Shown here: piece after piece, positions 9,505-64,000 of the stretch
Layout: every line of letters starts with the position of its first letter
Position numbering within the stretch: position 1 is the stretch's first letter
Origin: a virus
DNA: 64,000 nucleotides
Strand: one strand, 5' to 3'
Virus record (IMG/VR): IMGVR_UViG_3300037454_000906
Coordinates: 1-64,000 of that record
Program-made: the position numbers and the translations under genes
Notes under the pieces: generated by a model
Told to the model about the DNA's origin: nothing
The model's input: the letters and a program-made list of their open reading frames with translations, nothing else
The model's database searches: none

Positions 9505-9584
9505 TGGTCATCTCCGTGGTTGAATGTTTCGGGTTAAACGAAGTGCCGCCGGGCTCCACAGGGCGTGGGAAGCCGGCAACACGG

Positions 9585-12484
9585 TCACTTGTACTTGTTG
9601 GTCAGGATGTAGCAGTACAGATCGAGCAGTTCGTCGGGCACGCTGAATCGAGTGCCGGTGATCTCGATGGTCTCGGGGTCCTTCCCCACGAACACCTCCG
9701 CCGTGTCCGTACCCGGTACATAGGAAGTATCTCCCGGTACCGTCGGCCTGCCGCAAATTGTGTCGAGGATGTCGCACGAGCTCACGTTGATGGTCTCGCG
9801 GTCCCCCGGCACGTATTCCAGGCGGGTGATTGCGCAGAGCTCCACGCTCTTCTTTACCCCGTCTCTCTGTGTCCACGCCATTATCATGAGGCTACCCCGA
9901 GACACGTGACCGGAATGCCGTCGATATCCATGGAGCACTTGGCGAACGGGGTCTTGAAGAACACACGCTGGGCGAAACGCTTGTCCTTGTCAAAGAAGCT
10001 GTCCCCGACGAACAGATCCACTCGGTTGCCGGTTGCGGAAAGCACGCCGAAAACCCTGTATGCGCAAGAAGAAACCGTCGGGTTGGCCTCCCGGGTTTCC
10101 TCCTTTCTCAGTATGGGGTCTCTGAATGTGATGGTCATTTCTTTCTCCTCGTTCGTTTCGGTCTTCCGCCGGTCCCCACCGGGCGTGGGATGCGTGGCGC
10201 ACGGCTGGGTTTCTTGGGTCGTTCCGGGGTATCCGGTATCTTCATCGCCTCCGTCGCCAGGGCCTTGACCCGCATGGCCGCAAGGGCGTATTCCTCGGGA
10301 TCCGTCACGATGGCGTATTGTGCCCGGGTGCCGCAGTCGGACACGATGATGTGCGAAGGCGACAGTTCCAGCACGTTACCGTACCTGATTGATACCGAGC
10401 TGGCCTGGATGGTGTCGCCGCCGATTCGGTTGTACTTTCCGAGGCGGATGCCGAATAGCTTCACCAGGGTATCGAAGTCGTTGCGGTCCCATTCGGCTCC
10501 CTTGATGAACATGTAGTCGAATGAGTTCCTGATGCCCGTCGGGAACTTGATGCACTTCCCGGCGAGTCCGGCGAAGAACTTGTCGTACCGTATCGACGTG
10601 TCCATCGATGCGCTCTTGTACATATCCTCGTTTGCCGTGCGGATAATGCGGTTGCACGCTTCGATGGCCTGTTCCATGGTGGCCGGGGTCCATGAGGATA
10701 ACTTCATGAACATGTCGGCTACGGCGGGGCTCAAAGGGGTCTGGGCGGGGGGTGGTGTCCTTGTGTCTACCTGTCTTCGCATCAATTTACTCCGTTGGAG
10801 GTGAGTACCGGCTCGGCGTATTCCGGCCCGTAGTTGTCCCCGTTCGCCGCGGCATACAGCATGGCCCGACGGTTGTCCTGGGATGCCTTATCGGCTTCCC
10901 TCTGCCGTTCAACCATGGCGACATACTTTTCCGATGCCGACACGACCGGGCCAAGGTATTCGAGTATCCACCGGGTTGCTTCGCGCGTGCTCGCGAAGTA
11001 CCTGCGGCCCCTGGAATCGACGTAGGAACCGTCGAGGGGAACCTTGTCGCCGAGCTTCGACGGGTCCAGCCAGGTGACTCCAAGACGGTGGTCGAATGTC
11101 GGCCTGGCCGAACCGCAGTTCCTGACTGTCGCCTTAAGGAGGGAATCGACGGCGAGAACCATGCCATCGTTGGTGGGAATGGCTCCCTCCGTCAAGTCAA
11201 TGGCGGTCTCGCCTGGGCGAATGCGCATGAAATGGGGCACCCCTGCCCGGTCATGCACATTGAAGGTAGATTCGCCCAGACGGGAAATCACGCCAATGAA
11301 GTACCTGGTGGACCCGGCCATCTTGAACAGTTTGATCCTTACAGCCGTCATTCCCCATCCTTGATGTTGAATTCGAGGCCCGGGTGCAGTTCCATTGCAC
11401 GGACCTTGATGCGGTGGACAATCTCCGCGGGCAGTGATGCCCATTCGAGCATGCGCATGCGCTTGGCATGGAACTCGACGATCCAATCAAGGAATTCCGG
11501 CTTGTACGAGTTCCACGGCTTCTTCGGGATTTCCCCGCCGATCAGCACGTTGTACCTGCAGACTATGTCCACGGACCCGGTATACACCGTCTCGGTACAT
11601 GAGAACAACTGCCTGCTGTTGTTTCGGCACGGGTACCTTAATATGTTCTTGTATTTCCACATTATGGCTATTTCCTCTTTGGCTGTACGGTCAGTTTTCG
11701 GGCACCACCCTGGACGGGATGCCCCTTACGCGACGGGGGTGCGAACAGGGCGTCCACCAGTTTTACCAGGCCCGGGATGACCACGCTGTCGATGCGGGTT
11801 CTTTCGCTTTCCTTCCCCGGGCCAATGCCCGAGTTGAGGACCTCGGCTTCGCCGGGCACCGTACTTAAACCAGTGTTTCCGCGATGCATGGTCCAGGCAT
11901 ATCTCGCTGATAGGATGATTGCGCGCATGAGCTCGATGAACTTGTAGCGAATCGACTCGTCGATGACATCCTCGAATGCCGATTGTGCGGTCAGGATCTC
12001 ATTGGCCATCACTGAGCAGAATATCGCGGTACCCTTCCCGGGGCGGCTGCCTTTGTCGAAGTGGTATACCATGGCCACTTCCCAGTAACCGTTTGGGGCC
12101 ATACGGGGCTTTTCCATCCACATGTTGTTACCGGCCCGGTCGGTTCCGAGCTTCCAGTAGTTCTTGGGAATGTCGGTGGAAATCACCGTGCCCTTACGTT
12201 CTTGCGTTCTTTGCATTTCGCATCCTCAAGTTGCTGTTGATGGACAGTGCGGGGAGCTCGTATGCCAGCACGAAGTCCATCACGTCCATGCAGTGCCCGT
12301 ATATCGACAGGAACGAGACGGTAGCCGCCGAGTCCGGGTTGTCGCGAATACTGTCCCAAATACGACCGTAAACGCCGCCAAAGGTGCTGGCCGCGTCACG
12401 AACAATGTTAACAAGTCTTTCAAGTGTCTGCTTTTCCATAACTGAATACACCTCCATGGCCAAATGTAGCATAACATTCGGCAC
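9585..12484 (-). CDS. Block of hypothetical ORFs: 9585..9938, 9884..10138, 10135..10785, 10782..~11349, 11348..11662, 11668..12216, 12194..12484
   Basis: Contiguous, overlapping co-directional ORFs; no recognisable motifs. Confidence 0.55.
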
Positions 12485-14514: not shown

Positions 14515-14673
14515 ATGATGGGCGAAACCAGTTCGGTAACGAAATTGTACCTTGCGCAGTTTGCTGGCAATGCGGGTTGCATGCCCGGCGACATGTTCAG
14601 CAACGGGTACCTGGTGGCCCTCATACTGGTCGGGGCGCTCATCCTGCTGGGGCTGGTCCTCGACGTACTCTAG
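14515..14673 (+). CDS. Small membrane peptide (52 aa), below the ORF-track cutoff
   Basis: AGAGGAGG RBS; MMGETSSVTKLYLAQFAGNAGCMPGDMFSNGYLVALILVGALILLGLVLDVL*; C-terminal hydrophobic helix; stop overlaps the stop of 14670..14927(-). Confidence 0.65.
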   Translation: MMGETSSVTKLYLAQFAGNAGCMPGDMFSNGYLVALILVGALILLGLVLDVL

Positions 14674-14927
14674 CTTGCCGGAACATACGGCAGTTCGTCG
14701 ATATCGACCACAGTCTCCTCCCCTGTCCACACGGGACCATTGGGAAACCGATCAAACTCCTCCTGGGTATACTGGAACCCCCATTCCTTGCCGAACTTGG
14801 CTTCCATTAGGGCCCTGGCTCTTTCCCTGGAATCGTCTCCGGGAGGAACGGACACCCTGCAGAATGTCTTCCCGTAGGCCGGATGGGTAAACGAGAAGTT
14901 GAAGTAGTAATTCACCGTGCTTGCCAT
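14670..14927 (-). CDS. Hypothetical protein (85 aa)
   Basis: AAGGAGG RBS; preceded by a copy of the hairpin repeat. Confidence 0.65.
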   Translation of the reverse strand: MASTVNYYFNFSFTHPAYGKTFCRVSVPPGDDSRERARALMEAKFGKEWGFQYTQEEFDRFPNGPVWTGEETVVDIDELPYVPAS

Positions 14928-15046
14928 CGTAGCCTCCTTTGCACGCCGCCAGGTTGCGCTCCCGGACTCCACCGATTGTGGGATGCCGGTTACATGGATG
15001 AAAATGGGCGCGAGTGACTCGCGCCCATAAGTGTTCGGTAAGGTTC

Positions 15047-15886
15047 CTACTTGTCCTCGTCCCTGGCGAATATCTCGCCCCCATTGCTCCTGAGCGCACG
15101 TTCCGCGCCCGTTTCGGGAGGGGGGTTCATGAACAGGCCGTAGTTCTCGTCCTTCTTCTCCGGCTCCATGATGTAGCTGAAGCGTTTCAGACGTTCGGGG
15201 TGCGCCTCGTCGGGGTGCTTGGTCTTGATCATCGAGGTAAACGCCTGCTTGCCGAGGTCGTTCTTCGCGGGGGGATCGTCGGTGAACACCCCGTATTCGG
15301 TGAACGGTTTACCTTCTCGGTCAACGTACTCGGGTTTCTTGCCGGGCTCCTTGATCAGGACACAGTCCTGGTCGTACTTGCCGCACATTTCGATGGCGAA
15401 GTTGCGCAGCTCGTCCATGGGGACAATGGAACCGTCGGGCTTCTTGCTCGGGATGACGAACGATGTCTCGTAGTTGCCATAGTGGCCGTCGAGCTCGCGG
15501 AAACCGCCATATACGGTGAAGTAGGAATATCCGCGGGACCGTATGTCCTCGATAAGGCCCTTACGGGTCACGTAGTTGCCCATTGCGCCCCGGCTCCCGC
15601 GGTCGGAACTGATGATGACCATGCCGTTCTCGCCGTGGTAGTTCACTACGCGATCCAGGGTGGATTCGGTCAGCACCTGGAGGGGGCGGCGGTTCGCCAT
15701 GAAGCCATAGAGGCGCATGGGCGTGGATGCCATCATAGTGTCGATCGATTCGTTGAGGCTGGACAGGGAACCGGACGAAAGGGCCCGTGCGGCCTCGCCA
15801 GCCTCCATGAGCCCCAGAGTGGCGGCTGCCTGGGCGGCTGCCTCGACCATCGCTGTCCCTATGTTCTTGTCAATGTCACTATTCAT
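15047..15886 (-). CDS. Conserved phage-type hypothetical protein (279 aa)
   Basis: ESTLDRV..H...GMVIIS.DR...DIRSRGYSY..VYGGF.E...E.SF...GKYDQDCVL pattern resembles a large-phage family from memory (unverified). Confidence 0.6.
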   Translation of the reverse strand: MNSDIDKNIGTAMVEAAAQAAATLGLMEAGEAARALSSGSLSSLNESIDTMMASTPMRLYGFMANRRPLQVLTESTLDRVVNYHGENGMVIISSDRGSRGAMGNYVTRKGLIEDIRSRGYSYFTVYGGFRELDGHYGNYETSFVIPSKKPDGSIVPMDELRNFAIEMCGKYDQDCVLIKEPGKKPEYVDREGKPFTEYGVFTDDPPAKNDLGKQAFTSMIKTKHPDEAHPERLKRFSYIMEPEKKDENYGLFMNPPPETGAERALRSNGGEIFARDEDK

Positions 15887-17855: not shown

Positions 17856-17930
17856 TCGTACCGGGGAGATTCGAACTCGCCAACCTCTGCCTTCGGAGAG
17901 CAGCGCTCTATCCAGTTGAGCTACGGTACG
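17856..17930 (-). tRNA. tRNA-Arg(CCG)
   Basis: Acceptor CGTACCG/CGGTACG; D arm GCTC-AACTGGATA-GAGC; anticodon stem CTGCT/GGCAG with loop CT-CCG-AA; TTCGAAT loop with one C:C mismatch in the T stem; CCA not encoded. Confidence 0.88.
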
Positions 17931-20063: not shown

Positions 20064-21834
20064 CTAGTCCTTGTTCTTGATCTTTACCATTTCGGGCATG
20101 ATGACTTCGATCTTTTCCTTCGGGTCCGTAAGGGATTGAATGTCATTGGTGTCGCCGCGGTACCTGGCGATTTCCAGGGCCCGATTGATGGCCATATCGC
20201 GGCTATTGGCGTTAAAACCATACTCAATGTTGCCGTCGGTGGCATATTCCAGCAAGAGCGCGGTGCCCCCGTGGTTCCTGCCCAGGCCGAACGTCTGCCA
20301 TTTGTAATACGGCTCGCCGCATTCTTCCCAGACTTCCCCGTTAAACACCACGTAACCATCAGCTACTTTCTGTGCGGCCTCGGTCGCATCTTCAAGCGAG
20401 GATGCCACTATCTTGTACGCGCCGTTGAGGGTTTCCTCGGATTCTTCGAGCGTCTTATACCAGCCGAAATCACGCTGGCATTCGATTTCATTCGCCAGGC
20501 CATCCGCTTTCATGGGCTTCTCGGAACGGAGTGCACCAAACTGGTATGGCTTGGCGCGGAAGCACTTTCCATTGTAGGTTCGTATCGCGAACCTGTTGAA
20601 GATGCCGGCGGATTTGTCGGAATCGTACGCTTTCCTTACTTCGTCCATGGTCGAGGCGCCTTTCGCGATGCTCTCGTAGTCTGTCACGAAGAATGCTACC
20701 GGGAATTCGTCTTCAAGCAGCACGGGGGAATACAGGGTGACTTTCTTACACACGCGTTCCCTGATGACCGTGCGGCTCTTGGCCGAGGGGAGATAGGAAA
20801 TCTTGAACGGTATCTTAACTTCCATCTGTAAACGGCAGTGCTCATGGTTTTTCGGGTTCATGCTGGTCTCCTTTCGTTATGCGTGTAAGATATGACCCCG
20901 ACCTCCACCGGGCTCGGGGTCCGTGGAATGCGGCAGGTTACTTCTTCGGCTCTTCGTTGCCGGGGTTCGCGGGCTTTTTGGTGTCCTCAGCGAGCTCCTT
21001 GTCGATCATCCTGGCCATGAAGATGGTTGCCGGATCGAGCGGCTGGTTGCTGTTGATGGCCTGGAGAATCATGCAGTTTCCGATGGAGATGTCGTTCTTC
21101 GTCTCCATCTCCTTCATCACCTTGCCCATGAGTTTCGCCTTGGTCACGGAGGCAAAGTCGATGGCGCCGTTGGCCTGGATGCTCTGCATCAGCATGATCT
21201 TGGAGTAGTCGATGTTGTCGGGATCTTCGGCCATCTGGCCAATGATTTTCGCCTTCATGACATCCCCGAGATTGAAGTTGAAGTTGGCGGCGGAATTGTT
21301 GGTTTGGTTGTTTTCTGCCATGATATTTGTTTCCTTTTGGTTGTTGTTTGAATGTTGTTCCGTGCCTTTCACGGTATGTCCGGTATATCGTCCGGTATAT
21401 TGTGGGTGGGTTATTACTTCAAACGCAATTTCACCGGGGGTCATATTTCTACGAAGTCCAGCTATAACTGCGGTAAGCAAGATGGCGTGGCCTGGGGTGT
21501 CTTCGGTTATGCGGGGGTAACCGTTATCAACGATAATGTCCGTTACCCGTTGAATCATGGAATCTATCGGTTCGCCGTATTTGGCGGCAGTTTTGGTAGT
21601 ACCATCCGCGGGGCCATGCCTAAAAACTTGCTTGATCGAATCCAGCGTTTGTTGGGCATTAGATACGCGTTCTGCATATTCCGCAAGTTCTGCATATTCC
21701 GCAAACTTCTTGATGCGGCCCTCGCGATTCTTGATTTCGTTATAATCCTCGCGAAACTGCTGGTGATCCAAATCTGGATCATAATGGCTTATTTCTTCAT
21801 CACGCAGGGATATCCTCCTTTTGTTAATGGTCAT
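20064..21834 (-). CDS. Hypothetical ORFs 20064..20861 and 20938..21834 (the latter with a probable internal start at MAENNQ, ~21320)
   Basis: RBS-supported ORFs separated by a degenerate hairpin copy. Confidence 0.65.
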
Positions 21835-21976
21835 TTCTGGCCAAAGTGTTTTGTTGGTGTGGCTTGTGAGCGTTCACTCGGTTATGACAGCCGGTTAGCC
21901 ACTAAATTCTTCGTTCTTGCTGAGCCCATGGTATATTCCCGGGGTCCACTGTACGTGGCATGACACGTACACGGGG

Positions 21977-23308: not shown

Positions 23309-23390
23309 TTGGTTTCCTCCGTGTTCCTCGTGTCCCCATGATGCGCACCCCGGCTCCACCGGGCGAGTGGAACCGTGTACACGGAATGGG

Positions 23391-24011
23391 CTAGTAGGTT
23401 GACCTGAAGATGGCCTCGGATTCCTTGTCCAACTCATCCAGGTACTTGTAGGATACTTCCGTCTTCGGCTGGGGGCTATCGGGATGCGCGGGCATCTGAG
23501 CTATACAGAATCGTACGCCTTCACCACAGTATATAGCCTTGCCATACTGGACCAGCGCGCCAAGCCGGGTCTTGTTGGGAATGAGTTTCAAGGTGACCTT
23601 GAGGGCCTTGCAGAACTTTTCGAGTCTGGGGAACTGATCTGCGTGGACATAGGACATGGTGTTCCATTCGGGGTCCTGGTTGCCAAACGGAATAACCCTG
23701 TTTAGCAGGGGGACCCTGGTATCGTCATCGCTCAATTTTTCCGGGGGGAACTTCGTTCCGTTTCTCGGCGCGAGCTTGACTGCATCGAAATCTCCACCGA
23801 CTGGATCGAGACCAAGGTAATCGGCGTATTCGTTTGCCAATCCGGCCACGAGGCCCCTGCTGGCCTTAACGATAACCAGAGCGTGCCCATCGGTTGCTTC
23901 GACAGTACACTTTCGGAGGTCGAATTTGATGCCATTGATCCAGCGGTAAGCGTAGTCCTTACCGACGAACGACTGGATGGCATAGAGCAACTTGCTAAGT
24001 CTCTTTTTCAT
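23391..24011 (-). CDS. Possible sliding-clamp (DnaN)-like fragment protein
   Basis: INGIKFD....VEATDGHAL resembles the DnaN L.G....ATDGHRL motif; strong internal RBS before MKKRL. Confidence 0.45.
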   Translation of the reverse strand: MKKRLSKLLYAIQSFVGKDYAYRWINGIKFDLRKCTVEATDGHALVIVKASRGLVAGLANEYADYLGLDPVGGDFDAVKLAPRNGTKFPPEKLSDDDTRVPLLNRVIPFGNQDPEWNTMSYVHADQFPRLEKFCKALKVTLKLIPNKTRLGALVQYGKAIYCGEGVRFCIAQMPAHPDSPQPKTEVSYKYLDELDKESEAIFRSTY

Positions 24012-24253
24012 GGTTGGTGTTCTCCTTTGGTTCGGTTTCTTCCCTGTAACATGCCTTGCACAAGAACCGAGTCCTGAACCGGTCGGTACCCCAAAAATAA
24101 GGTACTTCGTCGGGTACCCGCACTTATCGCATGGTTCGGGATACCCGTTGGGTTTCCGCATGTACTGGTTCAATTCCTTGTTCACGTGAATCCTTGTTCG
24201 TGTTGTCGGATCATATGATGTGGCGCCGGACACCATCGTGTCCGGCGGCTACG

Positions 24254-28404: not shown

Positions 28405-28474
28405 CGATTTCTCGTAAGGTGTTGTTTGTCAATGCATTGCAGCATAAGTTAGCAAACTTTTTACCATCTTTTAG

Positions 28475-44837: not shown

Positions 44838-44911
44838 TTGTGTTTCATGCCCGTACGTTCGATCCCCGGAACCCACCGTCCGCGGCACCACCGTTACACG
44901 GCGGGTGTCAT

Positions 44912-46805: not shown

Positions 46806-46830
46806 GAAAAATGAAAAATTAAAAAACGGA

Positions 46831-46859
46831 AAGGCCCCCGGTTGTTCACCGGGGGCCTT
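46831..46859. terminator. Strong intrinsic terminator hairpin
   Basis: AAGGCCCCCGG-ttgttca-CCGGGGGCCTT with an A-tract on the left (U-tract on the minus strand). Confidence 0.75.
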
Positions 46860-46898
46860 GGATGTTTGGAGTATTATATGGATTTGATTGAGATTGTA

Positions 46899-48578: not shown

Positions 48579-48648
48579 GTTCGTGTCTCCTTTTGATGCT
48601 CCCCGTATGTTACGGGGGTGGCGCCTGGGGAGGCGCCGTCCGTGATTC

Positions 48649-51600: not shown

Positions 51601-53631
51601 ACCTTGATTTTGAACTCCGGGTCATTGGCGCCTTTGTCCATGTCGTATTCGGTATTGTCCTTTGCGGAATCGTCCGGGTAGATGTCGTGGAGGAACTTCT
51701 CGACAGTAGGTACATCGGTGCCATCGTATGCGGACACGTTGGCGAGAAATTCGGCGACATTGTTATATTCGTTCACGTGGGTGGAAATGCTCATGGGTTT
51801 TTCTCCATTTCAAAAAAATTTTTTAGTAAAGGTAGAAGTTCACCTTGCGGGTGAGGCCCTCGGTTTCCGCGAGGTGCTTGTGGACCTTGAAGGACTGGGT
51901 TTTATGCTGTTCCCAGTATTCCTCGCCCTTCTTGGTGAGAATGAGAACATCGAGGGACAGGGTGCCGTCATGGTGGTGATCCGCCACATGGAGGCCGTCC
52001 TTGTCGATGTAGATGTCTTGGGCATAGGATGACCTGCCGATGAATTTGAGGAAGTCATCTACGGAGTTGACCTCGATGACCTTGCCAGCGGCACCGGACG
52101 GCTGATAATCAGGGTAGCGGCTGTTGTAGTGACCGAAGAACAGGCAGGTCTTTCCCATGAGGGGACTGTGTTCCATGTTGCTCTTGAAGTCCTCGTATTC
52201 CAGGGTGTCGGAGGGGATGTAGGTGACCTTCGGTGTCGCCTGGAAGTCGATTCTTAATTCTTTCGTGTCTGCCATGATGTTGTCTCCTTGTTTCCTTGTT
52301 GTCCCTACGGTGTGTCCCCGGGGTCCACCCGGGATGGGGACATCGGGACACGGCGGGGACTACAAGTCCAAATCCTCGAACTCGAAGTCGGTTTGGTCAC
52401 CATTCGGCTTGGTGACATAGATGTTCATGATATGGTCCCAATAATGGGGCTTCAAATGCTCCATGAACATCATCAGCTTGGTCGGGTCATCGGTGCTTGG
52501 GTCATACGTGAGTTCGTTTAACCCAGGAACCGTGGATTCGCCCTCGTAGATGTAAGTACGCAGAGTAATCTTGCAGGGGGCAAGTTCCTCGCACCGCATG
52601 GTGATGTACTCACACATATCGTCAATGATTTCGTAGCTGGGTGAACGGCACGGGCCATCATACATAACCGTTTCGCCATTTTCACGCAGAATGTAAAGGT
52701 CACAAGCCATATTTTACCTCATTACCCGTAGGTAGGTTCTCCAAAGATGATGCAGTCGATGAAGTTCAGCGCGGAGCACATGTCGGCATTGCCTTTGAGG
52801 TAGTCGGCGAACGCATTGTATTCCTTGGCGTGGTCGATAAGGGCTTGGAGACCCTTCTCGAAGTCGGCCAGGGTGACATCGTGGTCCTTGCCGTCCGGGT
52901 CGGTGACAAGGATGGTCATGCCGCGTTCGAGCATCCCTGCGAAGATGTCCTCGATGCACGGGCCGAACTGGTCATCCTTGGGCCAGGTTTCTTTGAGTGC
53001 CTTCTTCACCTGGTCGTACTCGCCTTCGTTCTTCTCGTTGATGGCGTAGCCTGTCCCGGTGAACATGTCGGAAATGAGATAGGACAGCTTGTAGTCGCTC
53101 AGCTCGAGGAACTTCTTGAAAGTGATTGTTGCCATGTTGTCTCCTTGTTTCTTGTTGCCAGCACGTTGTATCGCCGGGGGCCACCGGATCCGGGCCATCG
53201 GATACACGGTGGGCTAAAGGCGCCCGGATGAAAAAAACACGACAAAAAGGGGGCGCCTGGAAACCAGGCGCCCCCGTGGAGACAACAAAATGTTAGGAAA
53301 TTTTCTTTACGATGCCTTCGGCAATCTTGACCAGGGGCTTCATTGCGACAATCTTCGAGAGCGCATTCGCGACCGCCTGTTCCGGTGTGTCGCCTATGCC
53401 GAAGCACTGGTTGGTGCATCCGGTCATCCCCGCGTAGTCGATTACCCCGATGGCCTTCTCCGTGGAGTAGGTGAGCGCGAACGGGGCAATCACCTCCTTG
53501 TTGAACCAGTGCCGCCCCATTTCGTCTTTTAGGGCATTGTGCGCCTCCTTCCCTTGATACCACGCGATCTCGCGGATGAACTCGCCGTCGGCGAGGGAGC
53601 AGAGGTCCAGTTTCGGTTTCTTCTTGGGCAT
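48649..53631 (-). CDS. Hypothetical ORFs: 48649..49245, 49321..50055, 50144..50644, 51054..51794, 51823..52275, 52360..52710, 52722..53135, 53293..~53631
   Basis: RBS-supported; hairpin copies at 50083, 50831, 52307 and 53163. Confidence 0.65.
50888..50969 (-). ncRNA. Degenerate tRNA-like element
   Basis: GCGGG-TTCGAAG-CCCGC T arm; TGCC-CATCGGTAA-GGCA D-like arm; 5-bp CACCG/CGGTG acceptor core; no canonical 7-nt anticodon loop. Confidence 0.4.
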
Positions 53632-54527: not shown

Positions 54528-57500
54528 TTATTTTCGCGTGAAAGTGTCATAGGCAGAATCAAATCCATACATACCGAAGTCGATGTACGGGATGCATTCG
54601 ATCTTCACCGCCGTGTTGTCGGACTCATTGTCCGAAAGGGTGTTCGGGACCAGGTACGTGACATTGGACCCTTCGAGGTTCCTGTCGATGTAGAGTTTCA
54701 CCCCCGCGGCCTTCGCAATGTCCTTGATTGCCTGGACATGCGGTTCCATCTTCTGCTTGACATCGAGGACGGCTTTGAGATCGTCCTCCATCGTGATCCT
54801 TTCCTTGACGAGCATCGCCTCGTACTGGGTATGGATCGTGTCCAGGATGCGCATGAAGGGAAACTCGGAATCATCCAGGTCCTCCGGCTTGAACTCGGCC
54901 TCCCCCCATTCCTCCTTTGGCCCGTCGCTGTCATCGACGAATGCGCGGACATACCAGGAAGCGTTAAGGAAATCGACGGTCAGGACAATCTGCACCTCGT
55001 CCGTTCCACCGCACCATGTCGGCTTCACGTGGAGACGGAAGTCCAGGTAGGAACCGAACGGGTCGTTGTTCTCGGCTTCCTCGCACTTGACTGCGCGGTA
55101 CATCTCGGGATGTTCCCGTTCGGCCAGGTTGCGGTACATGGCGGCGAAATGTTCCAGTTGGGTATCGGTGAGGCCTTTCTTGGCCTCGGGGGTCATGTTG
55201 GCTAAAAGGAACGCCAAGGACATGAGCTTGTTCATTATTGTCTCCTTGTTTCGTTGTTGACCGCACGTTGTGCCGCCGGGTCCCACCATTTATGGGACAC
55301 CGGGCACATGGTAGGTGCTAGGCGGGACTAAGGTGTTCCAGTCTCACGATGACCCTTGGGGGCGGGTTGTCCGCGAACGCTATGAGGTCGCGCACCAGGT
55401 CGTCCACCAGGTTCTGTATGCGTAGCTCGGAATCTCCCCCGTCGAACGCCGCTGATGCCATGAGGTGGCAGCTCCCCATGTAGCCCCCCGCGAGCAGGTG
55501 GCCCGTGGAGTCAAAGAGGGGGCCGATGTCTCGGATGCCATAGGTCCCTACGGCATTATCCCATGCCCGTGCCTTTTCAGCGGGGTCCATTTTTGAAAAA
55601 TCTTCTTCATAGGGGACATCATCGACTCTGAACTTGATGGCTCCTATGTCACCCCCTTCCTTCCTGATTTTATTGTTCACGTGCGCCGCGATGATTTCCC
55701 CGAGGAAAACGGGGGAACACACGATGTACTCGGGATGAATCCAACATGCTTTGCTCATTTAGGTCTCCTAGTATATGCGAATGTTTCCATTCTCGATTAT
55801 GAGCCCATTGGCGAGGTCGTCCGTCCCGTGTTGCCATCCCGCTTCGAGACTGAGCCGCATGAACTCTATCGGACGGGGGAACAGGGTCGTGTCGGCGAAC
55901 GCATCGCGAATATATGCGTAGTCGAGGCGGGAAACGTTCAACGGCCCGTTGAAGTAGGCGCGGTCAGCGTCCGCCACCCAGATGCAGACGCCCTCCTTGC
56001 GTTCCCATGGTTCGAGAATCCATTTCTTGATCTCGTCCTTGGCTTTCCTGCGGAGTTCCGCGATGAGCTTGTGGAGCTCGCCCTTGGTGAAGTTCTGGTT
56101 GCCGACCTTGTTCGCCATCGTAATCTCCTTGTTTCGTTGTTGACCGCACGTTGTGCCGCCGGGTCCCACCATCTGTGGGACACCGGGCACACGGGAGGTC
56201 ACTCGTCGGCGGTCACCCCAATCGCGGGGATACCGATGACAACCTTGTCCCCGGACTCGCGGGCGAACTCGATTGCGGCCCTCAACCCCTTTTCCTTGTA
56301 TGTCAGCATGAGCTTCCTCATGAAGCTGATGCCCTTGTGGTCGCCGTAGATGGTCCCGTTGGCCAACGCGTAGCCATAGGAGCCGTCGTTGTAGACGGTG
56401 GCGTCATTGGAGCCGTAAACCATGGGCCCGTCAACCTTGTTGTTCTCGTCTCCGAAGCAGAAGCCGTCGATTGAAAAATATTTTTCATGGTCCACGGGCC
56501 CGAACTCGTCACTCGGTGAGAAACTGGGGTAAAGCCCGTTTGCGGTGGCCCAGTCGAACAATTCGCGGAAATGCAGGGTCAGGTTGGCGCGCAGCTCGGC
56601 CAGGATAAGCCTCTTGACAAGGCACACGGCCTTGTACAATGCATCCGCCTGCTTGTCCAGGCACGTCTCCGCGGCCTTCCTGGTGCGCTTGGAGGGCGGG
56701 TAGAGGTTCTCGACGATGGTGTCGGTGTAGATGTCGAAGTTGCCCCCGTAGCTCGCCTCGCGGCACAGGCGCTTGACCTTGAACACCTCGCCGTCATCGT
56801 ACCTGCGGTCGAGGGGGATGTCCTCGGCTTCCTTATGGCAGATGAGGTGGCCGACGTTCAGCTCGGTAACGTCGCTTTCCCCGTTCACATCGTCGTAGTT
56901 GCCGATGCAGATACTTTCGAGCATCTGCTCGGCAAACCCGAGCACGGCCTTGCCGAAAGTGGAACGGGGCTTGGCCCTGCCCTTGATTTTCTCGTAAAGT
57001 CTGTTTGCGTTCATCGCTTGTCTCCTTGTGCCCCCACGTTGTGCTCCCGGGGTCCCCCACCCATGGGACCGCCAGCACACGGTGGGCAAGGGGGCCCAGG
57101 GGCAAAAATGTAAAAATAAAAATACAAAAAACCCGTCCGGACACGTGGCCCGGACGGGAAAAGTGTTGGTTCCCGGTCGCTAACAAGGAGTTTGACATGC
57201 GGCGCGCGACCGGGAACCGGGGGCAACATTGCGCCGCACATCAGGCAATAGTCAGTCCCACTGGATTGCGTTGTATGAGCACCCGTCGGGATCCACATGC
57301 ACGTTGTAGATGATTTTCCCCCTGGAAATGCGTTCCTTCTGCGCCTTGAATATGGCATCGACTTCTTCCCGCGAGAGGCTGTACGCCTCGTCCTGGGCCT
57401 TGTTGTACCCGAACTTGCGCAGCACCCTCCCGCTCCCGTCGATTTCCCACAGGCGCTGGAACTGGAACTTGACCCCGTACTCGCCCAGATCGTCCCCGTA

Positions 57501-60500
57501 GCAGATGCAGGAATTGGACATCCGCATCGCGTCAAGGACGGCTTGTCGGTGGATTTCGCTCGGGGTTCGCAGGTACCCGCAGCCGTTGGGGAGGGGCATC
57601 CCGTGCCGTTTTCCCACGGCTTCCCAAATCTTGCGTTCCTCCGCCTGGATTTCCTCTGTCGTTAGCCCAATGGGCCCCATCTTGTATTTCTTCTTCATTT
57701 TCTCCTCGTGACCCCACGCTGTATCCCCGGGCCCAACCACATCTGGGCACCGGGATACACGGGCGGTTACCATTTCACTTCGAACTTCTTCGTGCAGTCT
57801 GAACATACCGGGGTGGAACCGACAAATCGGTAGGTCGGCTTGCCGCACCCCTTGCACGGGTATTTCGTCCCGGCGGTTTCGCTCTTGTTCTTGAATCGCG
57901 CCTCCCCGTAATGGGTGTCAATCTTCGGGGGAGGGTTCGGATTCCCGTCAAGCCACAGCGACATGGGTTTCTCCTTGAAATCAAAAAATTATTTTTTGGC
58001 CAGGGTGTAGTTGTAGCCGGAATCCATCTTCCCGTGGAACTCGGGGTGCCTCTCGTACCCTGCGCGGACAATCGTCTGGTCGTGCGTGTTGTAGCCGCTG
58101 CCCGAACAGAAACTTGCACCGAACAGGTCGAGCCTGTATCCGTGCCCGGTGTTGAGGGGCTTGCCTTCCAGGTGGTCCCGGTAGGCCGCGATTGCGACAA
58201 TCCAGGCGAAAACCGGATTTTCCTTGAAGGCAATCGAGGTGGCCGTGGATTCCTTGTCGAACCCGTAGCCCTGCGTAACTTTTCCCGTTGTCAGGGTGCC
58301 GTCGGCGTACACGTTGGCCTTGGGGAGGAAGCCCCACGTACGGCTCTTGTGCCACTCGACGCGCACGCTGATGTCGGAGGGGAGCCCGATCTCGCTGCCG
58401 CGCCTGATCTCGGCCAGGGTGTCGCGGCGGCACTTGTCGAGCTCGATGCACGTGGCGTGGAGGACCTCTTCCCTGGCCTGTTCCAGGGTAATCTTCCCCT
58501 CGTCCAGCTTTTTGAGCGCCCTCTTGCCGAGTCGGCGCCGGATGTCGTCCTCGCCCATCTCCTTAATCCACCCGGCGTCCTTGGCCTTGGCGAGCACCGC
58601 GGTTTCAAGTATGGCGCTTTCCGTGAAAGCGAGGACCTTATCGGCATCGAACTTGAAAGTCTGTTCCATTTCAGTCTCCTTGTTTCCTTGTTGACCCCAC
58701 GTTGTGCTCCCGGGTCCCACCACAGATGGGACCCAGGGCACATGGTTTTCGTCAACTTCTAACAACCCATGCCGCCATGTCGGCAATCTATTCGGTCAGG
58801 CACCCGTTTTCAACGTGGAATCCGCAGCCCTGGTCATACGCCTCGCCCTGTATGGTGTCGTTCGCGTAGAACGTGAAGCAGCAGGCGTCGATTGCTTGCG
58901 GGTAGTCTCGCATCTGCGTCATTATCGACTCGATGTCATCGGCGCCGCACTCCACGCACTCCCGCCCTCTCCCGTTGTCGGGGTAGCCACGGATATCCAG
59001 GAAGAACGGATATTCCAGGTCATCGTTGGCACGGGAGTCGATTTGCTGCTCCATGGCGTCTTTCCATGCCGTGTACAATTCCTCGTAAGTAAATTTTTGG
59101 TGTCCGACCATGGAATTGCGAACCCGGTGGAACTTCTTGGGGAACCCGGGAATCTTGTATTTCGCGTAGCCCATGGACTTCGCGTCGGCCACGGAGCGAA
59201 TGGGGTCGAACGCTATGATGTTTCCGTGGGAATCATTGCGGACACGGAACCAGGATGCATTGGATTCGAGCGCTTTACGGGCGAGCGCTTGATATGCGGT
59301 CACTTCTTCCCGCGCCGTATTGGTCACATGGAGGGCGTGTGACAGGATTTCCGAGGTAACGATGCTCCCGGTGAACATGGCCAACGGCACCATGAGCTGA
59401 TCAAGTTCGGACCATTCGGCGGGCTCCTCGTTATCGACAGACGTGGTAACCTGTCCGGCGGCAAAATCGCGGTAGCATTCCTTCTTGGCCATTTCGAGCG
59501 CGATGCCGCTGGCCATGTCCGCGGTCGCGGCGGTCACTTCGTAGGTCTTGTGGAACAGGCGTTCCACCTTGATTTTCCACTTGATTTCATGTGCCATGTG
59601 TATCTCCTTGTTTCCTTGTGACCCCACGCTGTGCCGCCGGGTCCCACCATTCATGGGACAACTGGCACGCGGTGGGGCAAACGGAAAATCGAAAAATAAA
59701 AAGTGCCCATGTGGGCACTATGGAAACTTAGCCTTTTTATTATTTCTCCCCTATCCCCAAAGTGTTGCCGATTTACCTGTAATTGCCCATAACAGACGCA
59801 GCTAAGGCATCCTCCGTCAAGTCCTCATCCGTAATGGTACGGATTGCGGATGAGCCGCATTCGCTACGCCTGTTTCGCATGAATTTAATCCAGCAGTCCT
59901 TTGCGGGATGGGAACTTTTCTCCATTACGGCAAGCACCATGTCCGCTTCTTCATCGTTCATTTCAAACCGAACCAAGTGTATTTCTCCTTTTACGTTTTA
60001 ATTCCTCGGTTTAAGCACCCCGTGCGTAGGCGATGCCGTTCCAGTGCTCGGGACGGAGCCGGGGAGCCGGATAGCTCCTGCGGAGGTCCATGACGAGCGG
60101 TTTCACGCGCTTGGCCAGGGACGGCATGGACTCGATCTTGTCCGCGAGCCTGCTGCGTACGGAGTCGCCGGGGTAGCATTCCCAGGTGCGGTTGCAGTAG
60201 CCGACGTTGGCACGGGCGACCACGTTGCCCTGTGGGTCAACGAGGGCAGCCGAATGCACGAACTGGGTCTCGGTCCTGGGATTGTCAATCCCGTAAGACC
60301 ACCATTCAGTATGGTATTGGCCTGTGGGTTGGAATTTCGGGTTCTTCCTGCCGAGTTTCGGTGTCTTGTACATTGTTGTCTCCTTGTTGTTGAACATGCC
60401 CACGTTGTGCCCCCGGGTCCCACCAATCATGGGACATCTGGCGCATGGTCGGGGACCAGGGTTAACATAGGGAGCAAGTCCTTGGTCTTGAAGTACACGC

Positions 60501-63500
60501 GGCAATTCTTGAACGGCTCATGAAACGCGCAGACGGACATTTTTCCAAACGAGCGGATGGCTGCATGGAGCTGCATTTCGGTCAGCATTTTCTCCTCGCC
60601 ATTTACCACGTATTTTTTCGTGCACAGCTTTTTCCAGTAGTTCTCAAATTCTTCGTCACTCAGAATCGAATCATAGGCTCGCAGCAGAGCCCAACCTTCG
60701 TCGGTCAATTCGACGTACACGTAATCATTCATGTTAAATTCTGTAAACATAGTTGCCCCAAAATTAAAAAATTAAATTTGAATTGCGTTGATGGTGTAGG
60801 ATCTCTCGGAACCATCACTCCACATGAGAAGCACATACTGGCGCGCTTCGGGTTTCATGTTCTTCATCACATATTCGTAGGCTTCTTTCCAAGAAGTGGC
60901 CGTAAATGTGTCTGCGTCGTTGATGGAGATATTAAGTTCGGTCCCATCAACCATATTTGCCACCTCGTTGGCGATGGATTCACGGGCCTCTTCCCCGTTG
61001 ATATAGAGTTCGGTATTTCCGTCCTCGTTATCGAACACGCCCGTCGCGTCATTGATATGTCCGTTTTTGTCGGTGTCCGCCTGGGTCACAATGTAGTAGG
61101 TTGTCATGGTTCCCCCTAGATGTCGAGGTCGTTGATGGTGTAGACATCGGTGCGGGTGGAGCCGTCAGCGATGTAGATCTGCTTCACCATGATGGTAGTC
61201 GCGCCGTTGGCGATTGCCTCGCATACCGCCCCGACATTCGGTTCGATTGAGTTGCCCTCGTCGTCCTCGATGGTGATGTCCTTGATGTCGTCCATAGCGA
61301 GCGTGGCCGCCACATCGTCTGAGAGCGCGGGAACGAGGTCATCCGTGGTCTCCCCGTGCGCCATGATGACCACCGGAACCATCTCGCGGTCAATTTGGTC
61401 GCTGAGGTTAAGGTGGTCGCCGCAGGAATAGGTAGTCAGAAGTTTCATGTTGTCTCCTTGTCGTTGAACACGCACACGTTGGGCCCCCGGGTGCCCCCGA
61501 TCGCGGGACACGGGGAGCACGGATGGCTACGCCTGCATGACGGAAAGTCCGAGGTCCGGGTTCCCGTAGAGCCATGCGTTGTAGATTACGTCATAGTCCA
61601 TGTTGAGCAGGGTGGCCAGTTTCTCAAACAGGCGCTCGCGGACAACGCTGTCGCCCACCCCGATATAATCATAGATGTCCTTGTGTTCGCGGAGCGTCTG
61701 AATTGCTCCCGCAAAGGTTCCCGTAATCCGATTACCGAGGGTATCGTCCGGGAAAGCCTTTTTGTACCACGGCTTGATTGCCTTGTTGAACGGCTTCATT
61801 CCCTTGTTGATTTCGCGTTTAGCCATGCCGTTGCCTCCTTGGTTAAGATGGTGTTAGTCCTTGCACTCGAAGTCGAAGAAGTCTTCATCACAATGGTCAC
61901 ATGTCCATCGGTATTCACCCACCTCGGACGGGGTAACCTTGCGCCCGCAGCGCGGGCAATGGCGGTGATTCGCGTTGTCGCTTACTATGGGCAAGATGGT
62001 CCATCGGATGTTGTGGGCATCGTGTTCGGCGCGGTCGAGGACAACCTCGTGCTCGAAGATGATGATGGTGCCGTCATGGTCCTCCTGCTCCTTTTCCGCG
62101 ACACGATTGGCAAAGTCTTTCGCCTCGTCATGCGAGGGGAAATCCCTGGCGTACGCGGTCACATGGGTGTTCTCGGGGTCATCCGAGTGCTTGATTACGA
62201 CGTAGCGTTCGTCGGCCCCCTCGTTTCCTTGTTTCTGTTCGTGCTTTGCCATGTCGTCTCCTTGTCTCTGAACGTGCCCACGTTGTATCCCCGGGCCCCA
62301 CCGCCCGCGGGAATCCGGATACCCGGTGGGGGGAATGGGAAAATTGAAAAATAAAGTGCCCGTTTGGGCACCTCATTCCGATCGAGGTCACTTCGCGCGC
62401 TCGGGGGCGCGGACCTTTGCCACTTTCAGCTGCCCGTTGGAACCCGGGACGAGCATCGGTGCGCTATATTGCTTCTCTTCGCGCATTCTGTTCTCCTTAG
62501 TTGAAGTCAAGTTTGAAATCCAGGTCGCTCGCGACGGCCATCATGTAGAGGTTGTGGTGCACGAACTCATTCACTTTCATGGCCAGGAAGAGCATGTCCC
62601 CCGCATTGTCCGCATGGAACGTGCCGTGGAGAAGGCGGTTCCCGTTCCCCCCGTTTTCCGCGTTCGCGCTGTCGAAGCGGATGGAACACACTTCCACGTC
62701 AATGTCCCCGTTGTTCGTGTGGTTGGGCGTGAACAGGATGTCGAGCCTGGGATATTCGTGCGTGGTCCCGACGAGTCGGCTCCCGCTCCTGTCGCGGGGG
62801 ACCGCCTTGCAGGCGAACATCTTGATAGTGCCGTTCTCGTTCTCCACGGGGACAAGCTCGCCCATGCCCCAGTGCTCGTGGGCAATCTCGTTGAAATTGT
62901 TGGTCTCCCCAATCGTTTTCAGCATCTTGGCCGTCTTTTCGGTAAAGTACATGTCGCGTCTCCTTGTCATTGCATCCCCACGATGTGCCGCCGGGTCCCC
63001 CCGTCCGTGGGACACCGGGCACACGGTGGGCATAGGGACCCAGGGGCAAAAAAATGTAAAAATAAAAATACAAAAAGGGGCGCCTGCTCACGCAGGCGCC
63101 CCCGTTGGGATGGATGGAATTTTTTAGTCAGTCAGCTCGGGTGGGTTGTCGATGGGCACAACCTTTTGCTTGGGGTATGCCTTTTTCATTCTCGCCAGGG
63201 CCATCCACTTTGATTCGTCAAAGATGGACTTGGTTGCGGTGTATCCCGTGAAGTGAACCTCGAAGAGGAACTTCTTCTTGGGATATTTTCCGAGAGTGGG
63301 TTGAATGGGTGTCGCCATTGTTCCTCCTAGAAGTAGTTGCCCGCGCCGTCACCCTCTTCGTAGAGGGAGTTCGTTTCGGTGGAAAGTATCGTCACGGAGA
63401 GATCGTCGATTGCCGGGACGGTATCGAGGTCGATTTCCAGGTCACACTGGTCCTTGCCGGACTCATCTTCTTCCGGCGTAAGTTCGCGTGCTTTATGCCA

Positions 63501-64000
63501 CATCTCGACCTCTTCGGGGACAAGGCGGATGGTAGTGTCCCAATAGCAATCGTTTTGCGCGAGAAGTCTGCAATCCGCTTCATCAACGGCATCTTGCAAC
63601 TGCTTTGCCAAACTGCGAATCTTCGCAAGCTGTTCTTCGGGAATCTTTCTCATGATTTCTCCTTGTTTCTGTGTTGCCCATACGATGCACCCCCGGCCCC
63701 CACCTTGTCGGGGGTGCCGGGCGCACGGAAGTCATGCTTCATCGTCGTCGGGTCAATTTTTCATCTGCCGACTTTCGGATTTCTGATGTGGTGGATTTCA
63801 TAGTCTTTGCGAGCGTGTCCGGGGAATCGCGGGCGTGCTGCACTATGGCATCCTTGGTGTCCTTGGCCATCTCGACCGCCTTTTTCTTGGCCGAGTCAAC
63901 CATCTCGCCGCCCTTTTCGGCCACGACCTCGCCCGCCCCCGATGCTACCTCGGTGGCAATGTCCAGGGTAGCGGAGACCGCATCCGTGGCCATCGCGCCC
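54528..64000 (-). CDS. Hypothetical ORFs: 54528..55235, 55318..55758, 55768..56118, 56199..57014, 57252..57698, 57767..57964 (Zn finger), 57989..58669, 58788..59597, 59773..59976, 60011..60373, 60427..60750, 60772..61107, 61116..61448, 61527..61826, 61854..62252 (C-terminal CPRC/CDHC Zn ribbon), 62497..62952, 63124..63318, 63327..63653, 63739..>64000
   Basis: Most follow the hairpin plus CAACAAGGAAACAAGGAGAC-type leader. Confidence 0.65.

Follow-up and report, generated by a model that had tools for sequence, protein, structure and literature searches.

The window analysed here comprises the first 64,000 nucleotides of the 253,117-bp virus record IMGVR_UViG_3300037454_000906, and its minus strand carries an array of short GC-rich hairpins placed before genes. 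A preliminary description of this DNA had reported about 40 hairpin-separated genes at 9538-63730. The array is indeed real and larger than was reported. A profile HMM seeded with 16 element copies detected 40 copies in the window and a covariance model added five degenerate ones, giving 45. In the whole record the HMM found 69 copies (span 9,540 to 82,085) and the covariance model 74, all of which (74/74) lie on the minus, coding strand. The outermost cores in the window, 9538-9584 and 63682-63728, agree with the limits given before, but the array continues beyond the window to 82.1 kb. It is confined to 9.5-82.1 kb, with no copy on either strand of the remaining 170 kb of the record, and a strict core pattern had three matches against 0.00 expected. 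The previously quoted example at 56148-56194 has the sequence described for it. The elements precede ~74 unrelated small genes (one paralogous pair among 65) in a single ~73-kb arm of unknown-function genes, and copies also head conserved core genes, for example FtsK and sigma. The element cores and adjoining features are as follows; cores were identified by HMM and alignment where nothing else is given.

9538-63728, minus: window part of the element array (HMM and covariance model; whole array 9,538 to 82,080 of the record)
63682-63728, minus: element core, 47 nt
62980-63026, minus: element core, terminator upstream
62280-62326, minus: element core, terminator upstream
61476-61522, minus: element core
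60402-60448, minus: element core
59626-59672, minus: element core, terminator upstream
58699-58745, minus: element core
57716-57762, minus: element core
57036-57082, minus: element core, terminator upstream
56148-56194, minus: element core, the example quoted earlier
55265-55311, minus: element core
53163-53209, minus: element core, terminator upstream
52307-52353, minus: element core
50831-50877, minus: element core
50083-50129, minus: element core
47618-47664, minus: element core
46367-46413, minus: element core, long GC-rich leader, next gene starts near 46134 (HMM)
45425-45471, minus: element core
44855-44901, minus: element core
43271-43317, minus: element core
42007-42053, minus: element core
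40985-41031, minus: element core
40667-40713, minus: element core
40280-40326, minus: element core, gene behind it has an ortholog in relative G002 (HMM)
39782-39828, minus: element core, 5' arm co-inherited with the upstream gene in G002 (HMM)
39192-39238, minus: element core
38707-38753, minus: element core
37999-38045, minus: element core
37152-37198, minus: element core
36449-36495, minus: element core
35477-35523, minus: element core
34248-34294, minus: element core
33567-33613, minus: degenerate element core (covariance model only)
32591-32637, minus: degenerate element core (covariance model only)
31135-31181, minus: degenerate element core (covariance model only)
29904-29950, minus: element core heading the 426-aa gene at 28588-29868 (HMM)
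26990-27036, minus: element core
26383-26429, minus: element core
24215-24261, minus: degenerate element core heading the RusA-like core gene at 23391-24236 (covariance model)
23338-23384, minus: weak element core
21928-21974, minus: weak element core, long leader (HMM)
20887-20933, minus: degenerate element core (covariance model only)
14951-14997, minus: weak element core
10158-10204, minus: weak element core
9538-9584, minus: element core heading the FtsK/SpoIIIE-like gene (HMM)
8302-9504, minus: FtsK/SpoIIIE-like gene, conserved anchor at the downstream array end (profile scan of genes, relatives)
8248-8294, minus: degenerate copy directly upstream of the sigma-factor gene (by eye only; relatives have a detectable copy here)
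7448-8218, minus: phage sigma-70-family factor (regions 2 and 4), which relatives conserve at the corresponding position

The core is 47 nt long and GC-rich, with the blocks CCGTGT, GGTGG, CCGG and CAnCGT spaced invariantly. Sixty-nine copies aligned over 63 columns with zero gaps, at an information content of ~0.84 bits per position over the 63 positions. Columns C4, C5, G38 and C48 are invariant and another 12 are conserved at ≥90%, and the bulge positions are kept while all four bases occur in them, as had been described for the bulged N (column 47, T25/A23/C12/G9; column 16, T30/G17/C15/A7). Downstream of the core follow an A/C-rich unstructured leader, a Shine-Dalgarno site and ATG, with an element-to-ATG distance of mostly 24-31 nt. 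This uniform placement on the coding strand before unrelated genes of one arm is in keeping with a promoter. The shared sense orientation, the tight RBS spacing and the unstructured leader would also suit a purely RNA-level cis element, which is the main rival and which we regard as possible but doubtful. Under that reading, a few very long transcripts would start from promoters in AT-rich islands and pass the terminators by antitermination, and the hairpin would be a cut site for host RNase III or another nuclease, or an end-protecting, insulating stem that standardises translation. At the gathering threshold, an Rfam search of the whole window yielded one tRNA only, and the elements at 55.2-63.1 kb had no match at E up to 1; the lack of a match to a described Rfam family counts against an RNA element.

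The high information content, the uniform orientation and the invariant, fixed-spacing bases regardless of pairing could also reflect operator-type DNA sites, at which a phage regulator would bind the blocks on double-stranded DNA or a cruciform and switch the whole accessory arm together. Such sites leave the constant RBS distance and the initiation after terminators unexplained, and Pfam and PHROG scans of the neighbouring genes returned no regulator; we consider them improbable. Such operators would be comparable to the stoperators of Cluster A mycobacteriophages, which form many oriented sites. These stoperators and the start-associated sequences (SAS/ESAS) of Cluster K are, like the element, short conserved motifs that recur with uniform orientation at numerous gene starts or intergenic gaps of a single clade, and SAS include the RBS, but they are 13-17 bp long, have no long covarying stem and are unrelated to the element in sequence.

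The element folds into a hairpin of ~18-24 bp with conserved bulges, which in the best copies extends into the flanks. In a single fixed register 73.6% of cells pair and columns 16, 40-41 and 47 stay unpaired; the register shifts between subfamilies, and RNAalifold returned no consensus structure for the element alignment. The mid and upper stems covary. In this genome native copies (mean −21.4 kcal/mol) are more stable than arm-swapped chimeras (−19.1, p = 2.5e-4) and than shuffled copies, which average −16.4. Furthermore, 83 copies from relatives contained 98 double changes versus 42 ± 5 in shuffles, with 0/500 shuffles reaching 98, and 81 copies from relatives had a mean energy of −23.0 versus −14.1 for shuffles. 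Covariation and energies well under those of shuffles were thus seen in four phages. The compensatory stem changes reported earlier are significant by double changes and energies, but they are weaker than was implied, as the incomplete pairing and the missing RNAalifold consensus show. These comparisons indicate that the base-paired structure of the element is under selection.

Long hairpins with covariation and low energies argue for an RNA-level role, as does the better folding of the sense than of the antisense strand in this genome (−21.4 vs −19.05, p = 5e-7). However, the sense preference is gone in relatives (−23.0 for each strand; A.C mismatches 101 vs G.U pairs 47). Dyad symmetry without strand preference in relatives would fit operators, but a dimeric operator predicts no arm covariation, against the 98 double changes seen. 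Hairpin potential and compensatory change also count in favour of a composite promoter and stem-loop, although a purely double-stranded promoter needs no covariation, so that the hairpin would need a putative second function. The 3' arm is conserved more strongly than the 5' arm, the invariant G38 pairs with its nominal partner in only 34/69 copies, and CCGG-box cells are unpaired in 41-48 of 83 copies from relatives. This pattern fits sequence-specific reading of one half with the other half kept complementary, whereas a host double-strand RNase needs no invariant bases at fixed spacing. T7-type RNase III sites are irregular hairpins of about two turns with internal bulges, intercistronic, just upstream of the RBS and repeated along the early region. 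The element shares the bulged two-turn form, the position before the RBS and the repetition; T7, however, has about ten sites in one polycistronic transcript, as opposed to 74 copies here, many right behind strong terminators, and the element has bases that are invariant independently of pairing. A further point against the RNA-level explanation is that no RNase III gene was found in the phage.

Intrinsic terminators and an AT-rich island in the window are as follows.

63076-63103, minus: intrinsic terminator ~50 nt before the element
62348-62379, minus: intrinsic terminator before the element
59702-59719, minus: intrinsic terminator before the element, GTGCCCA..TGGGCAC palindrome family
57132-57158, minus: intrinsic terminator before the element
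53249-53275, minus: intrinsic terminator before the element
46831-46859, minus: strong terminator closing the upstream sub-array, followed by the AT-rich island and no element
46540-46830, minus: AT-rich non-coding island between two sub-arrays, candidate conventional promoter region

On the coding strand, 13/15 strong intrinsic terminators have an element 30-65 nt downstream, and nothing else is conserved in the interval. The strong terminators that immediately precede many copies suggest a promoter role, which the preliminary description had not considered. The arm of relative L120 begins behind a divergent gene, and its first gene is preceded by terminator, 8 nt, element and RBS, in that order; any promoter after that terminator must therefore be in the element or its leader. 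There the element has nothing to separate, which also speaks against a purely intercistronic RNA site, and the 13 terminators upstream of elements would oblige such a site to rely on a putative antitermination system. In contrast, the 9-46 kb sub-array has almost no terminators and the element lies 2-9 nt after the stop codon, an arrangement that suits an intercistronic RNA site equally. T7-type polycistronic placement is plausible for this sub-array but contradicted for the 13 copies behind terminators. Each of the two sub-arrays is preceded by an AT-rich island (82.3-82.7 kb and 46.5-46.8 kb), one of which is kept in L120. These islands could hold conventional promoters driving long transcripts, which would favour the RNA-level alternative over promoters in the elements themselves.

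A scan for sigma-70 consensus promoters gave chance-level matches, none coinciding with elements, in agreement with the earlier statement that no sigma70 promoter is visible in them. A phage-encoded RNA polymerase was searched for as well, and no large ORF contained a polymerase domain or metal-binding motif; the phage does encode the sigma-70-family factor with regions 2 and 4. Its gene is preceded by a weak element copy in relatives G003, L120, L122 and L123 and by the degenerate copy in this genome, as would be expected of an alternative sigma factor, for which autoregulation is typical. Together these observations favour promoters read with the phage sigma factor. On the other side, the sigma gene sits at the end of the arm that sigma would switch on, and the conserved blocks fit the −35/−10 geometry of no sigma factor known to us. 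Sigma-54 promoters carry two nearly invariant dinucleotides separated by ten bases, GG at −24 and GC at −12. This candidate (GG-N10-GC) was rejected, since the spacing fits only the subset of copies reading GGCAC..GGGCA, G and C reach just 64% at columns 42 and 43, which covary with columns 11 and 10, and 42% of copies have C at column 54. Phage N4 has three hairpin promoters, each with a 3-nt loop on a stem of 5-7 bp, which its giant virion RNA polymerase recognises. As in N4, the hairpin could belong to an early-gene promoter signal, but the stem of the element is ~18-24 bp and no such polymerase was found in the phage.

The same element is present in six other related phage contigs. Two flanking genes shared with L120 (91% and 70% identical) enclose 73.3 kb with 74 elements in this genome and 5.9 kb with ~6 elements in L120, so that arm size differs 12-fold between relatives. 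Ortholog maps showed many indels and same-strand transpositions, and genes beside elements are gained, lost and reordered with orientation kept. Together with the unrelated downstream genes, this bears out the cassette-like layout described earlier. The gene behind 40280-40326 has a G002 ortholog (89% amino-acid and 86% nucleotide identity) that stands behind a different element variant. At 39782-39828 homology with G002 is lost from the loop onward, the 5' arm being inherited together with the upstream gene. Two adjacent genes have traded places between G002 and G003 without a change of orientation, in one case the exchanged unit comprises leader, gene and the following hairpin's 5' arm, and variable genes accumulate between the conserved AT-rich control region and the conserved core.

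The exchange unit, the pair swap and the accumulation beside the control region, like the single unrelated ORFs between structured palindromes with bulges at conserved positions, would be expected of integron-like capture, in which a dedicated recombinase would cut the hairpins, acting as ssDNA recombination sites, at a fixed point and each gene with its hairpin would be a mobile cassette. attC sites, too, are imperfect palindromes between unrelated single ORFs in one orientation; their folded strand has extrahelical bases at conserved positions, a trait that the unpaired columns of the element may share. For this part of the earlier interpretation both the enzyme and the expected signature are missing. 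An integron array has an IntI-type tyrosine recombinase, attI and Pc beside it, but tyrosine recombinase PF00589 is absent from the 99%-complete record, whereas all control genomes gave a match. The sole Y1 transposase is encoded by an IS at 186.5 kb, and the element-bearing relatives G001 and G003 do not have this transposase. Homology tracts end at element columns 0, 20, 46, 54-65 and 80-83 instead of at one fixed hairpin position. Furthermore, the element differs from attC, which varies in length, in its fixed length, in the constant spacing at which every copy is joined to a leader and RBS and in its lack of the GTTRRRY core, which the preliminary description had already observed and the alignment confirmed; copies before the core genes FtsK and sigma also argue against capture. 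The earlier interpretation is thus supported in part, and integron-like capture is very unlikely because there is no tyrosine recombinase and the junctions fall at differing element positions. We likewise give a slim chance to a broader alternative, namely that the array is a gene-capture platform, integron-like with a different site and recombinase, in which ORFs enter beside the AT-rich control region by folded-hairpin recombination through an unrecognised enzyme, or that the hairpin, as folded DNA, is a promoter for a sigma-70-family holoenzyme.

High copy number, palindromic form and the greater similarity of neighbouring than of distant copies might suggest a selfish miniature repeat (REP/MITE-like) that spread through intergenic DNA without serving the phage. 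This is extremely unlikely given the strict orientation, the start-codon distance and the confinement to one arm, and even phages with just 46% identity between their sigma factors share the same conserved blocks. Among 185,579 bacterial and archaeal species, scanned with one genome each, only single chance-level matches were found. REP/RAYT repeats were rejected on the single IS-type Y1, absent from G001/G003, and on the one orientation of all 74 copies.

The reading that we favour, tentatively, is that the element is a composite promoter/stem-loop expression module similar to the PeSL (promoter-early stem-loop) cassettes of T4-like phages, and that it also helps gene shuffling. From the sequence we infer promoter activity, a start site, an acting sigma factor and a role for the hairpin. 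The cassette order would be an optional intrinsic terminator, the 47-nt imperfect hairpin, the short A/C-rich leader, the Shine-Dalgarno site and ATG, and the module would head nearly every small transcription/translation unit of the hyperplastic arm. Its 3' half, with the G-rich GGTGG box, the CCGG box and the invariant CAnCGT, may be a sequence-specific signal for a holoenzyme that does not use the sigma-70 consensus. The simplest such enzyme would be host core RNA polymerase carrying either the phage sigma factor or a phage co-factor, and the predicted start site is the CA of the following GGGCA, a few bases downstream. The 5' half would be kept complementary to the 3' half, such that read-through RNA or extruded DNA could fold into the long bulged hairpin and insulate or attenuate the upstream unit. 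Homologous recombination between direct-repeat copies would add, delete and permute genes, because ~75 nt of near-identical sequence are repeated 74 times in direct orientation, and it would account for the 12-fold difference in arm size.

PeSLs consist of stop codon, promoter overlapping a stem-loop, SD and start, lie upstream of ORFans in hyperplastic regions and mediate shuffling, and promoter and terminator activity as well as mini-circles have been demonstrated for them (Arbiol et al. 2010, PMC2839356; Comeau et al. 2014, PMC4122927). This shared logic and the hyperplasticity of the arm support the promoter module. The element likewise occurs in ~50 or more copies per genome, directly upstream of ORFans between stop codon and SD/start, with insertions, deletions and replacements between relatives, here with junctions in or next to elements at varying columns. 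Both contain a stable stem-loop, and both pair a terminator-like with a restart function, which for the element is predicted. In contrast to PeSLs, which have an E. coli sigma-70 consensus promoter and an AT-rich upstream region, the element is GC-rich and lacks that consensus; the PeSL stem-loop varies in position, whereas the element has a rigid 47-nt geometry with invariant bases, is accompanied by a separate upstream terminator in half of the array, and is a promoter by inference. An attempt to place the phage among T4-like phages did not succeed. The element resembles the T4-like promoter/stem-loop cassettes but is new in sequence, with no recognisable standard promoter.

In uncultivated huge phages the element is a compact, clade-wide and highly regular gene-start module. 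As a promoter, it would define a new promoter class and probably also the specificity of a phage sigma factor, and the sequence by itself would reveal the temporal class of ~74 unknown genes. As an RNA site, it would exceed in within-genome copy number every other intercistronic processing or insulation element known to us. It may also serve as a natural insulated expression part for synthetic biology, and with the covariance model from this analysis the arm can be located, and its limits set, in metagenomic phage contigs. With either reading, a phage arm can grow twelve-fold by gaining standardised single-gene units, which extends the PeSL idea beyond T4-like phages.

The record is a single contig of 253,117 bp (52% G+C, estimated to be 99% complete) in which the element, a 47-nt GC-rich imperfect hairpin core followed by an A/C-rich leader, a Shine-Dalgarno site and ATG, is repeated along one arm and on one strand. 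The copy at 56148-56194 (-) was checked and matches its preliminary description. A strict pattern for the core occurred 3 times against 0.00 expected, and a profile built from 16 copies found 69 copies in the whole record, 69 of 69 on the minus strand, which is the coding strand, between 9,540 and 82,085. A covariance model built on these 69 gave 74 copies, all on the minus strand of the same 73-kb arm, with 0 in the remaining 170 kb. The array that had been described as about 40 genes is therefore real, with 45 copies inside the window, but its extent is larger, as the whole record holds 74.

All 69 copies fit a gap-free alignment of 63 columns. Columns C4, C5, G38 and C48 are invariant, and 12 further columns are at least 90% conserved. 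Read 5' to 3', the conservation falls into blocks: CCGTGT marks the 5' end, CC precedes the loop, GGTGG comes after it and is followed by CCGG, and CAnCGT marks the 3' end. Beyond these come GGGCA and the A/C-rich leader; the start codon, served by a Shine-Dalgarno site, is mostly 24-31 nt past the element. GATC occupies the same place in the loop (columns 24-27; CGATCG, GGATCC; for example window 39205-39215) in ~30% of copies here and in many copies of two related phage contigs, G002 and G003, and the 3' CCGG box reads CCTGG in G003; each is a motif typical of methylation or restriction sites.

By the rough gene calls used here, the element-containing intergenic gaps are bimodal (68-95 nt and 118-170 nt). 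At ~53-82 kb, the end of the upstream gene is followed by an intrinsic terminator and, 25-45 nt later, by the element; at ~9-52 kb, the element begins 2-9 nt after the stop codon. The 65 element-headed genes are mutually unrelated except for 1 paralogous pair, and no Pfam domain was found in the ten largest tested. Two element-free gaps (window 48579-48649 and 49246-49321) carry another hairpin, GGCGCC-N-CCCCAGGCGCC, ahead of the same type of leader and ribosome-binding site (RBS), which may be a second module type.

Three related contigs from IMG/VR also carry the element, with 8 copies at the contig end of G001 (253 kb), 47 in G002 (42 kb) and 28 in G003 (203 kb), and every copy is co-oriented with the genes. 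A pattern scan of 185,579 bacterial and archaeal species, with one genome per species, returned 83 loci that were nearly all singletons and are taken to be chance-level. Four matches in a Lentimicrobiaceae MAG were rejected as repeated coding sequence unrecognised by the covariance model. Rfam contained no matching family (the window at gathering threshold, the elements over 55.2-63.1 kb at E up to 1), and 10 kb of the window had no match in a phage collection by megablast.

The hairpin and its compensatory changes, as proposed in the preliminary description, are supported by tests that do not depend on register, but the single register put forward there pairs in only 73.6% of cells, slightly above column shuffles (71.4%) and well above slid controls (34-47%). 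RNAalifold found no consensus structure on the fixed alignment because the register of the 5' arm differs between subfamilies while the 3' arm is fixed, and mutual information in the element alignment is dominated by two leader subfamilies. Native copies had a mean folding energy of -21.4 kcal/mol, compared with -16.4 for shuffles and -19.1 for arm-swapped chimeras of different copies (p = 2.5e-4). Among the 83 copies from the three related phages, whose alignment was fitted to the model and somewhat favours structure, 98 cells showed changes on both sides, against 42 +/- 5 after shuffling (reached by 0 of 500 shuffles), and the covariation score reached 0.157, where shuffles gave 0.083 and slid controls 0.04-0.09. 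Pair 10-43 in these relatives is G-C in 16 copies, U-A in 16, A-U in 15 and C-G in 3, and pair 19-33 is C-G in 48 and G-C in 19; the mean energy of 81 of the 83 copies was -23.0, against -14.1 for shuffles. The register-independent energies and the double changes therefore show that selection maintains a base-paired structure in the middle and upper stem.

The stem base, CCGTGT with CAnCG, showed zero covariation. The 3' CCGG box is kept even where its 5' partner is unpaired: 34 of 69 copies pair the invariant G38 with its nominal partner, and in the relatives 41-48 of 83 CCGG-box cells lack pairing. We tentatively read the element as a composite promoter/stem-loop module of the kind formed by PeSLs, the promoter-early stem-loop cassettes of T4-like phages, in which the 3' half would be read as sequence and the 5' half held complementary to it. 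Such a composite would explain why the stem base is conserved on both sides without covariation, and why spacer positions covary freely while the invariant bases lie in the 3' arm. In this genome the sense strand is the stabler (-21.4 versus -19.05 for the antisense) and G.U pairs exceed A.C in the upper stem, whereas the relatives show the same energy for either strand and have more A.C mismatches than G.U pairs. The wobble test, with its direction reversed in the relatives, was therefore rejected as a discriminator and favours neither RNA nor DNA.

As had been stated, the elements show no sigma-70 consensus promoter: matches of sigma-70 type occurred at chance frequency and none coincided with an element. 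A sigma-54 promoter was also rejected, its likeness being restricted to a subset of copies. Of the coding strand's 15 strongest terminator-like sites, 13 have an element 30-65 nt after them, and the element is the sole conserved part of that interval. In L120, another related contig, the first gene of the arm sits past a divergently transcribed gene, and the sequence leading to it comprises, in order, a conserved AT-rich region, a terminator carrying six consecutive T, 8 nt, the element and the RBS. With terminators directly before elements, transcription must restart in the element or leader, unless the polymerase is made terminator-resistant. The A and T of CAnCGT would match the two key bases of a sigma-70-family -10 sequence if transcription started at the CA of GGGCA, 5-7 nt further on.

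Window 7448-8218 encodes a 256-aa member of the sigma-70 family in which regions 2 and 4 are present. The gene keeps its place at the arm's downstream end across relatives, and the element copy upstream of it is degenerate in this genome and weak in G003; autoregulated alternative sigma factors usually carry their own promoter signal upstream. Metagenomes contain 23 clusters of homologs of this sigma factor, and in three of the contigs, L120, L122 and L123, whose homologs are 46-52% identical, the element heads several genes each, including the FtsK-like and sigma genes. In G001 and G003 there is also another sigma-like protein (~270 aa, 23-24% identical; loci noted, G003 5260-5808 and G001 14645-15193), of which this genome showed no counterpart and near which no element lies. 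For a phage RNA polymerase, Pfam gave no match to single-subunit or beta-type domains, the negative for PF00940 being weak, as its control genomes were also silent; the nine largest ORFs tested had no PHROG or Pfam match, and no ORF above 250 aa contained a DxDGD-type motif.

Many elements follow terminators that make up a separate repeat family, with the near-perfect palindrome GTGCCCA-NN-TGGGCAC:

Terminators with the palindrome GTGCCCA-NN-TGGGCAC (L001 is the record beyond the window)
Window 59702-59719, palindromic terminator
Window 62348-62379, palindromic terminator
L001 2134-2151, palindromic terminator
L001 10206-10227, palindromic terminator
L001 14418-14435, palindromic terminator

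A variant in G001, GGTGCTCAG..GAGCACC, lies the same 26-31 nt from the element, and some copies are without a T-run. The half-site TGGGCA is also present after the element.

An AT-rich divergent region (L001 18250-18790, record 82.25-82.79 kb) separates the first element from a 578-aa TnpB/Cas12f-like gene. Its DNA sequence is conserved in L120 (2420-2700), the sigma factors of the two phages being 52% identical, and it is likely a control region with promoters, operators or an origin. A second AT-rich, non-coding island (window 46540-46860), with no significant similarity to the first, stands behind a strong terminator and divides the array into two sub-arrays that differ in leader subfamily (CGT-GGGCATGTTCA versus CGT-ATGGGCA); the element following it is succeeded by a ~260-nt GC-rich, apparently non-coding stretch. 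Long antiterminated transcripts from these islands (82.3-82.7 and 46.5-46.8 kb) could carry the element as a site acting in RNA only, in processing, end protection or translational insulation. This main rival is possible but less likely than the composite module: it fits the terminator-free sub-array well, but would require a hypothetical antitermination system. The phage record has no RNase III gene. Elements serving as operator sites are improbable and a selfish repeat is barely credible, each fitting more poorly than either the composite module or the RNA-only site.

Several other features were observed in the genome. A nine-repeat CRISPR-like array with 36-nt repeats (window 27842-28434) adjoins a 426-aa gene (28588-29868) that is itself element-headed (29904-29950), and a second CRISPR-like array lies at ~87.5 kb of the record; both repeat types are unrelated to the element, and a link to the phage CRISPR systems was rejected. 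A tRNA-Arg(CCG) gene (window 17856-17930 (-)) lies within the element array near an IS-type tnpB region (18.4-19.8 kb). Just downstream of the array and sigma gene, window 2022-4479 encodes thymidylate synthase, dihydrofolate reductase and a DHH/DHHA1 phosphoesterase. Elsewhere, record 232225-240411 (-) is a 2,728-aa ORF without an informative Pfam domain, and the tail/baseplate region has several further ORFs of 1,000-1,700 aa without a family.

The arm is flanked by the TnpB/Cas12f-like gene (91% identical to L120) and an FtsK-like gene (70% identical), the interval between them spanning 73.3 kb with 74 elements in this genome and 5.9 kb with ~6 elements in L120. Taken in order, the genes of L120 have their counterparts at 8-15 kb and 23.4-24 kb of this genome; therefore ~60 kb of genes of unknown function were added here or lost in L120, and the arm is hyperplastic. 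Mapped against G002 and G003, orthologs keep a broadly colinear order that is interrupted by many gaps and several same-strand transpositions, and one adjacent gene pair is swapped between G002 and G003. Gene 39834-40247 has 86% nucleotide identity to its G002 ortholog; the homology starts in the leader, ~15 nt upstream of the RBS and after an element variant that differs strongly, extends across the next element's 5' arm and is gone from the loop onward. Other tracts end at columns 0, 20, 46, 54-65 and 80-83, read only where nucleotide identity was high enough, as the relatives are too diverged for most junctions to be base-resolved. Neighbouring elements are 67% identical, compared with 59% for distant ones (permutation p < 0.0005).

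Comparison with the relatives thus places junctions in or beside elements, with genes gained, lost or reordered, but at no single fixed position. The proposal of single-stranded DNA cassette recombination gained little support: the record contains no tyrosine recombinase, and its sole Y1 transposase gene (IS200/IS605-type, record 186545-186922 (+), a 144-aa frame, E = 1.3e-32) is part of an IS and missing from three element-bearing relatives, G001, G002 and G003. Integron-like capture, in which the elements would serve as recombination sites, is very unlikely given the varying junction columns and the lack of that recombinase. The junction pattern is as would be expected from homologous exchange between direct repeats, not site-specific capture. 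Such exchange has been described for PeSLs (PMC2839356, PMC4122927). If the element is a composite promoter/stem-loop module, gene shuffling in these phages would be a by-product of module repetition.
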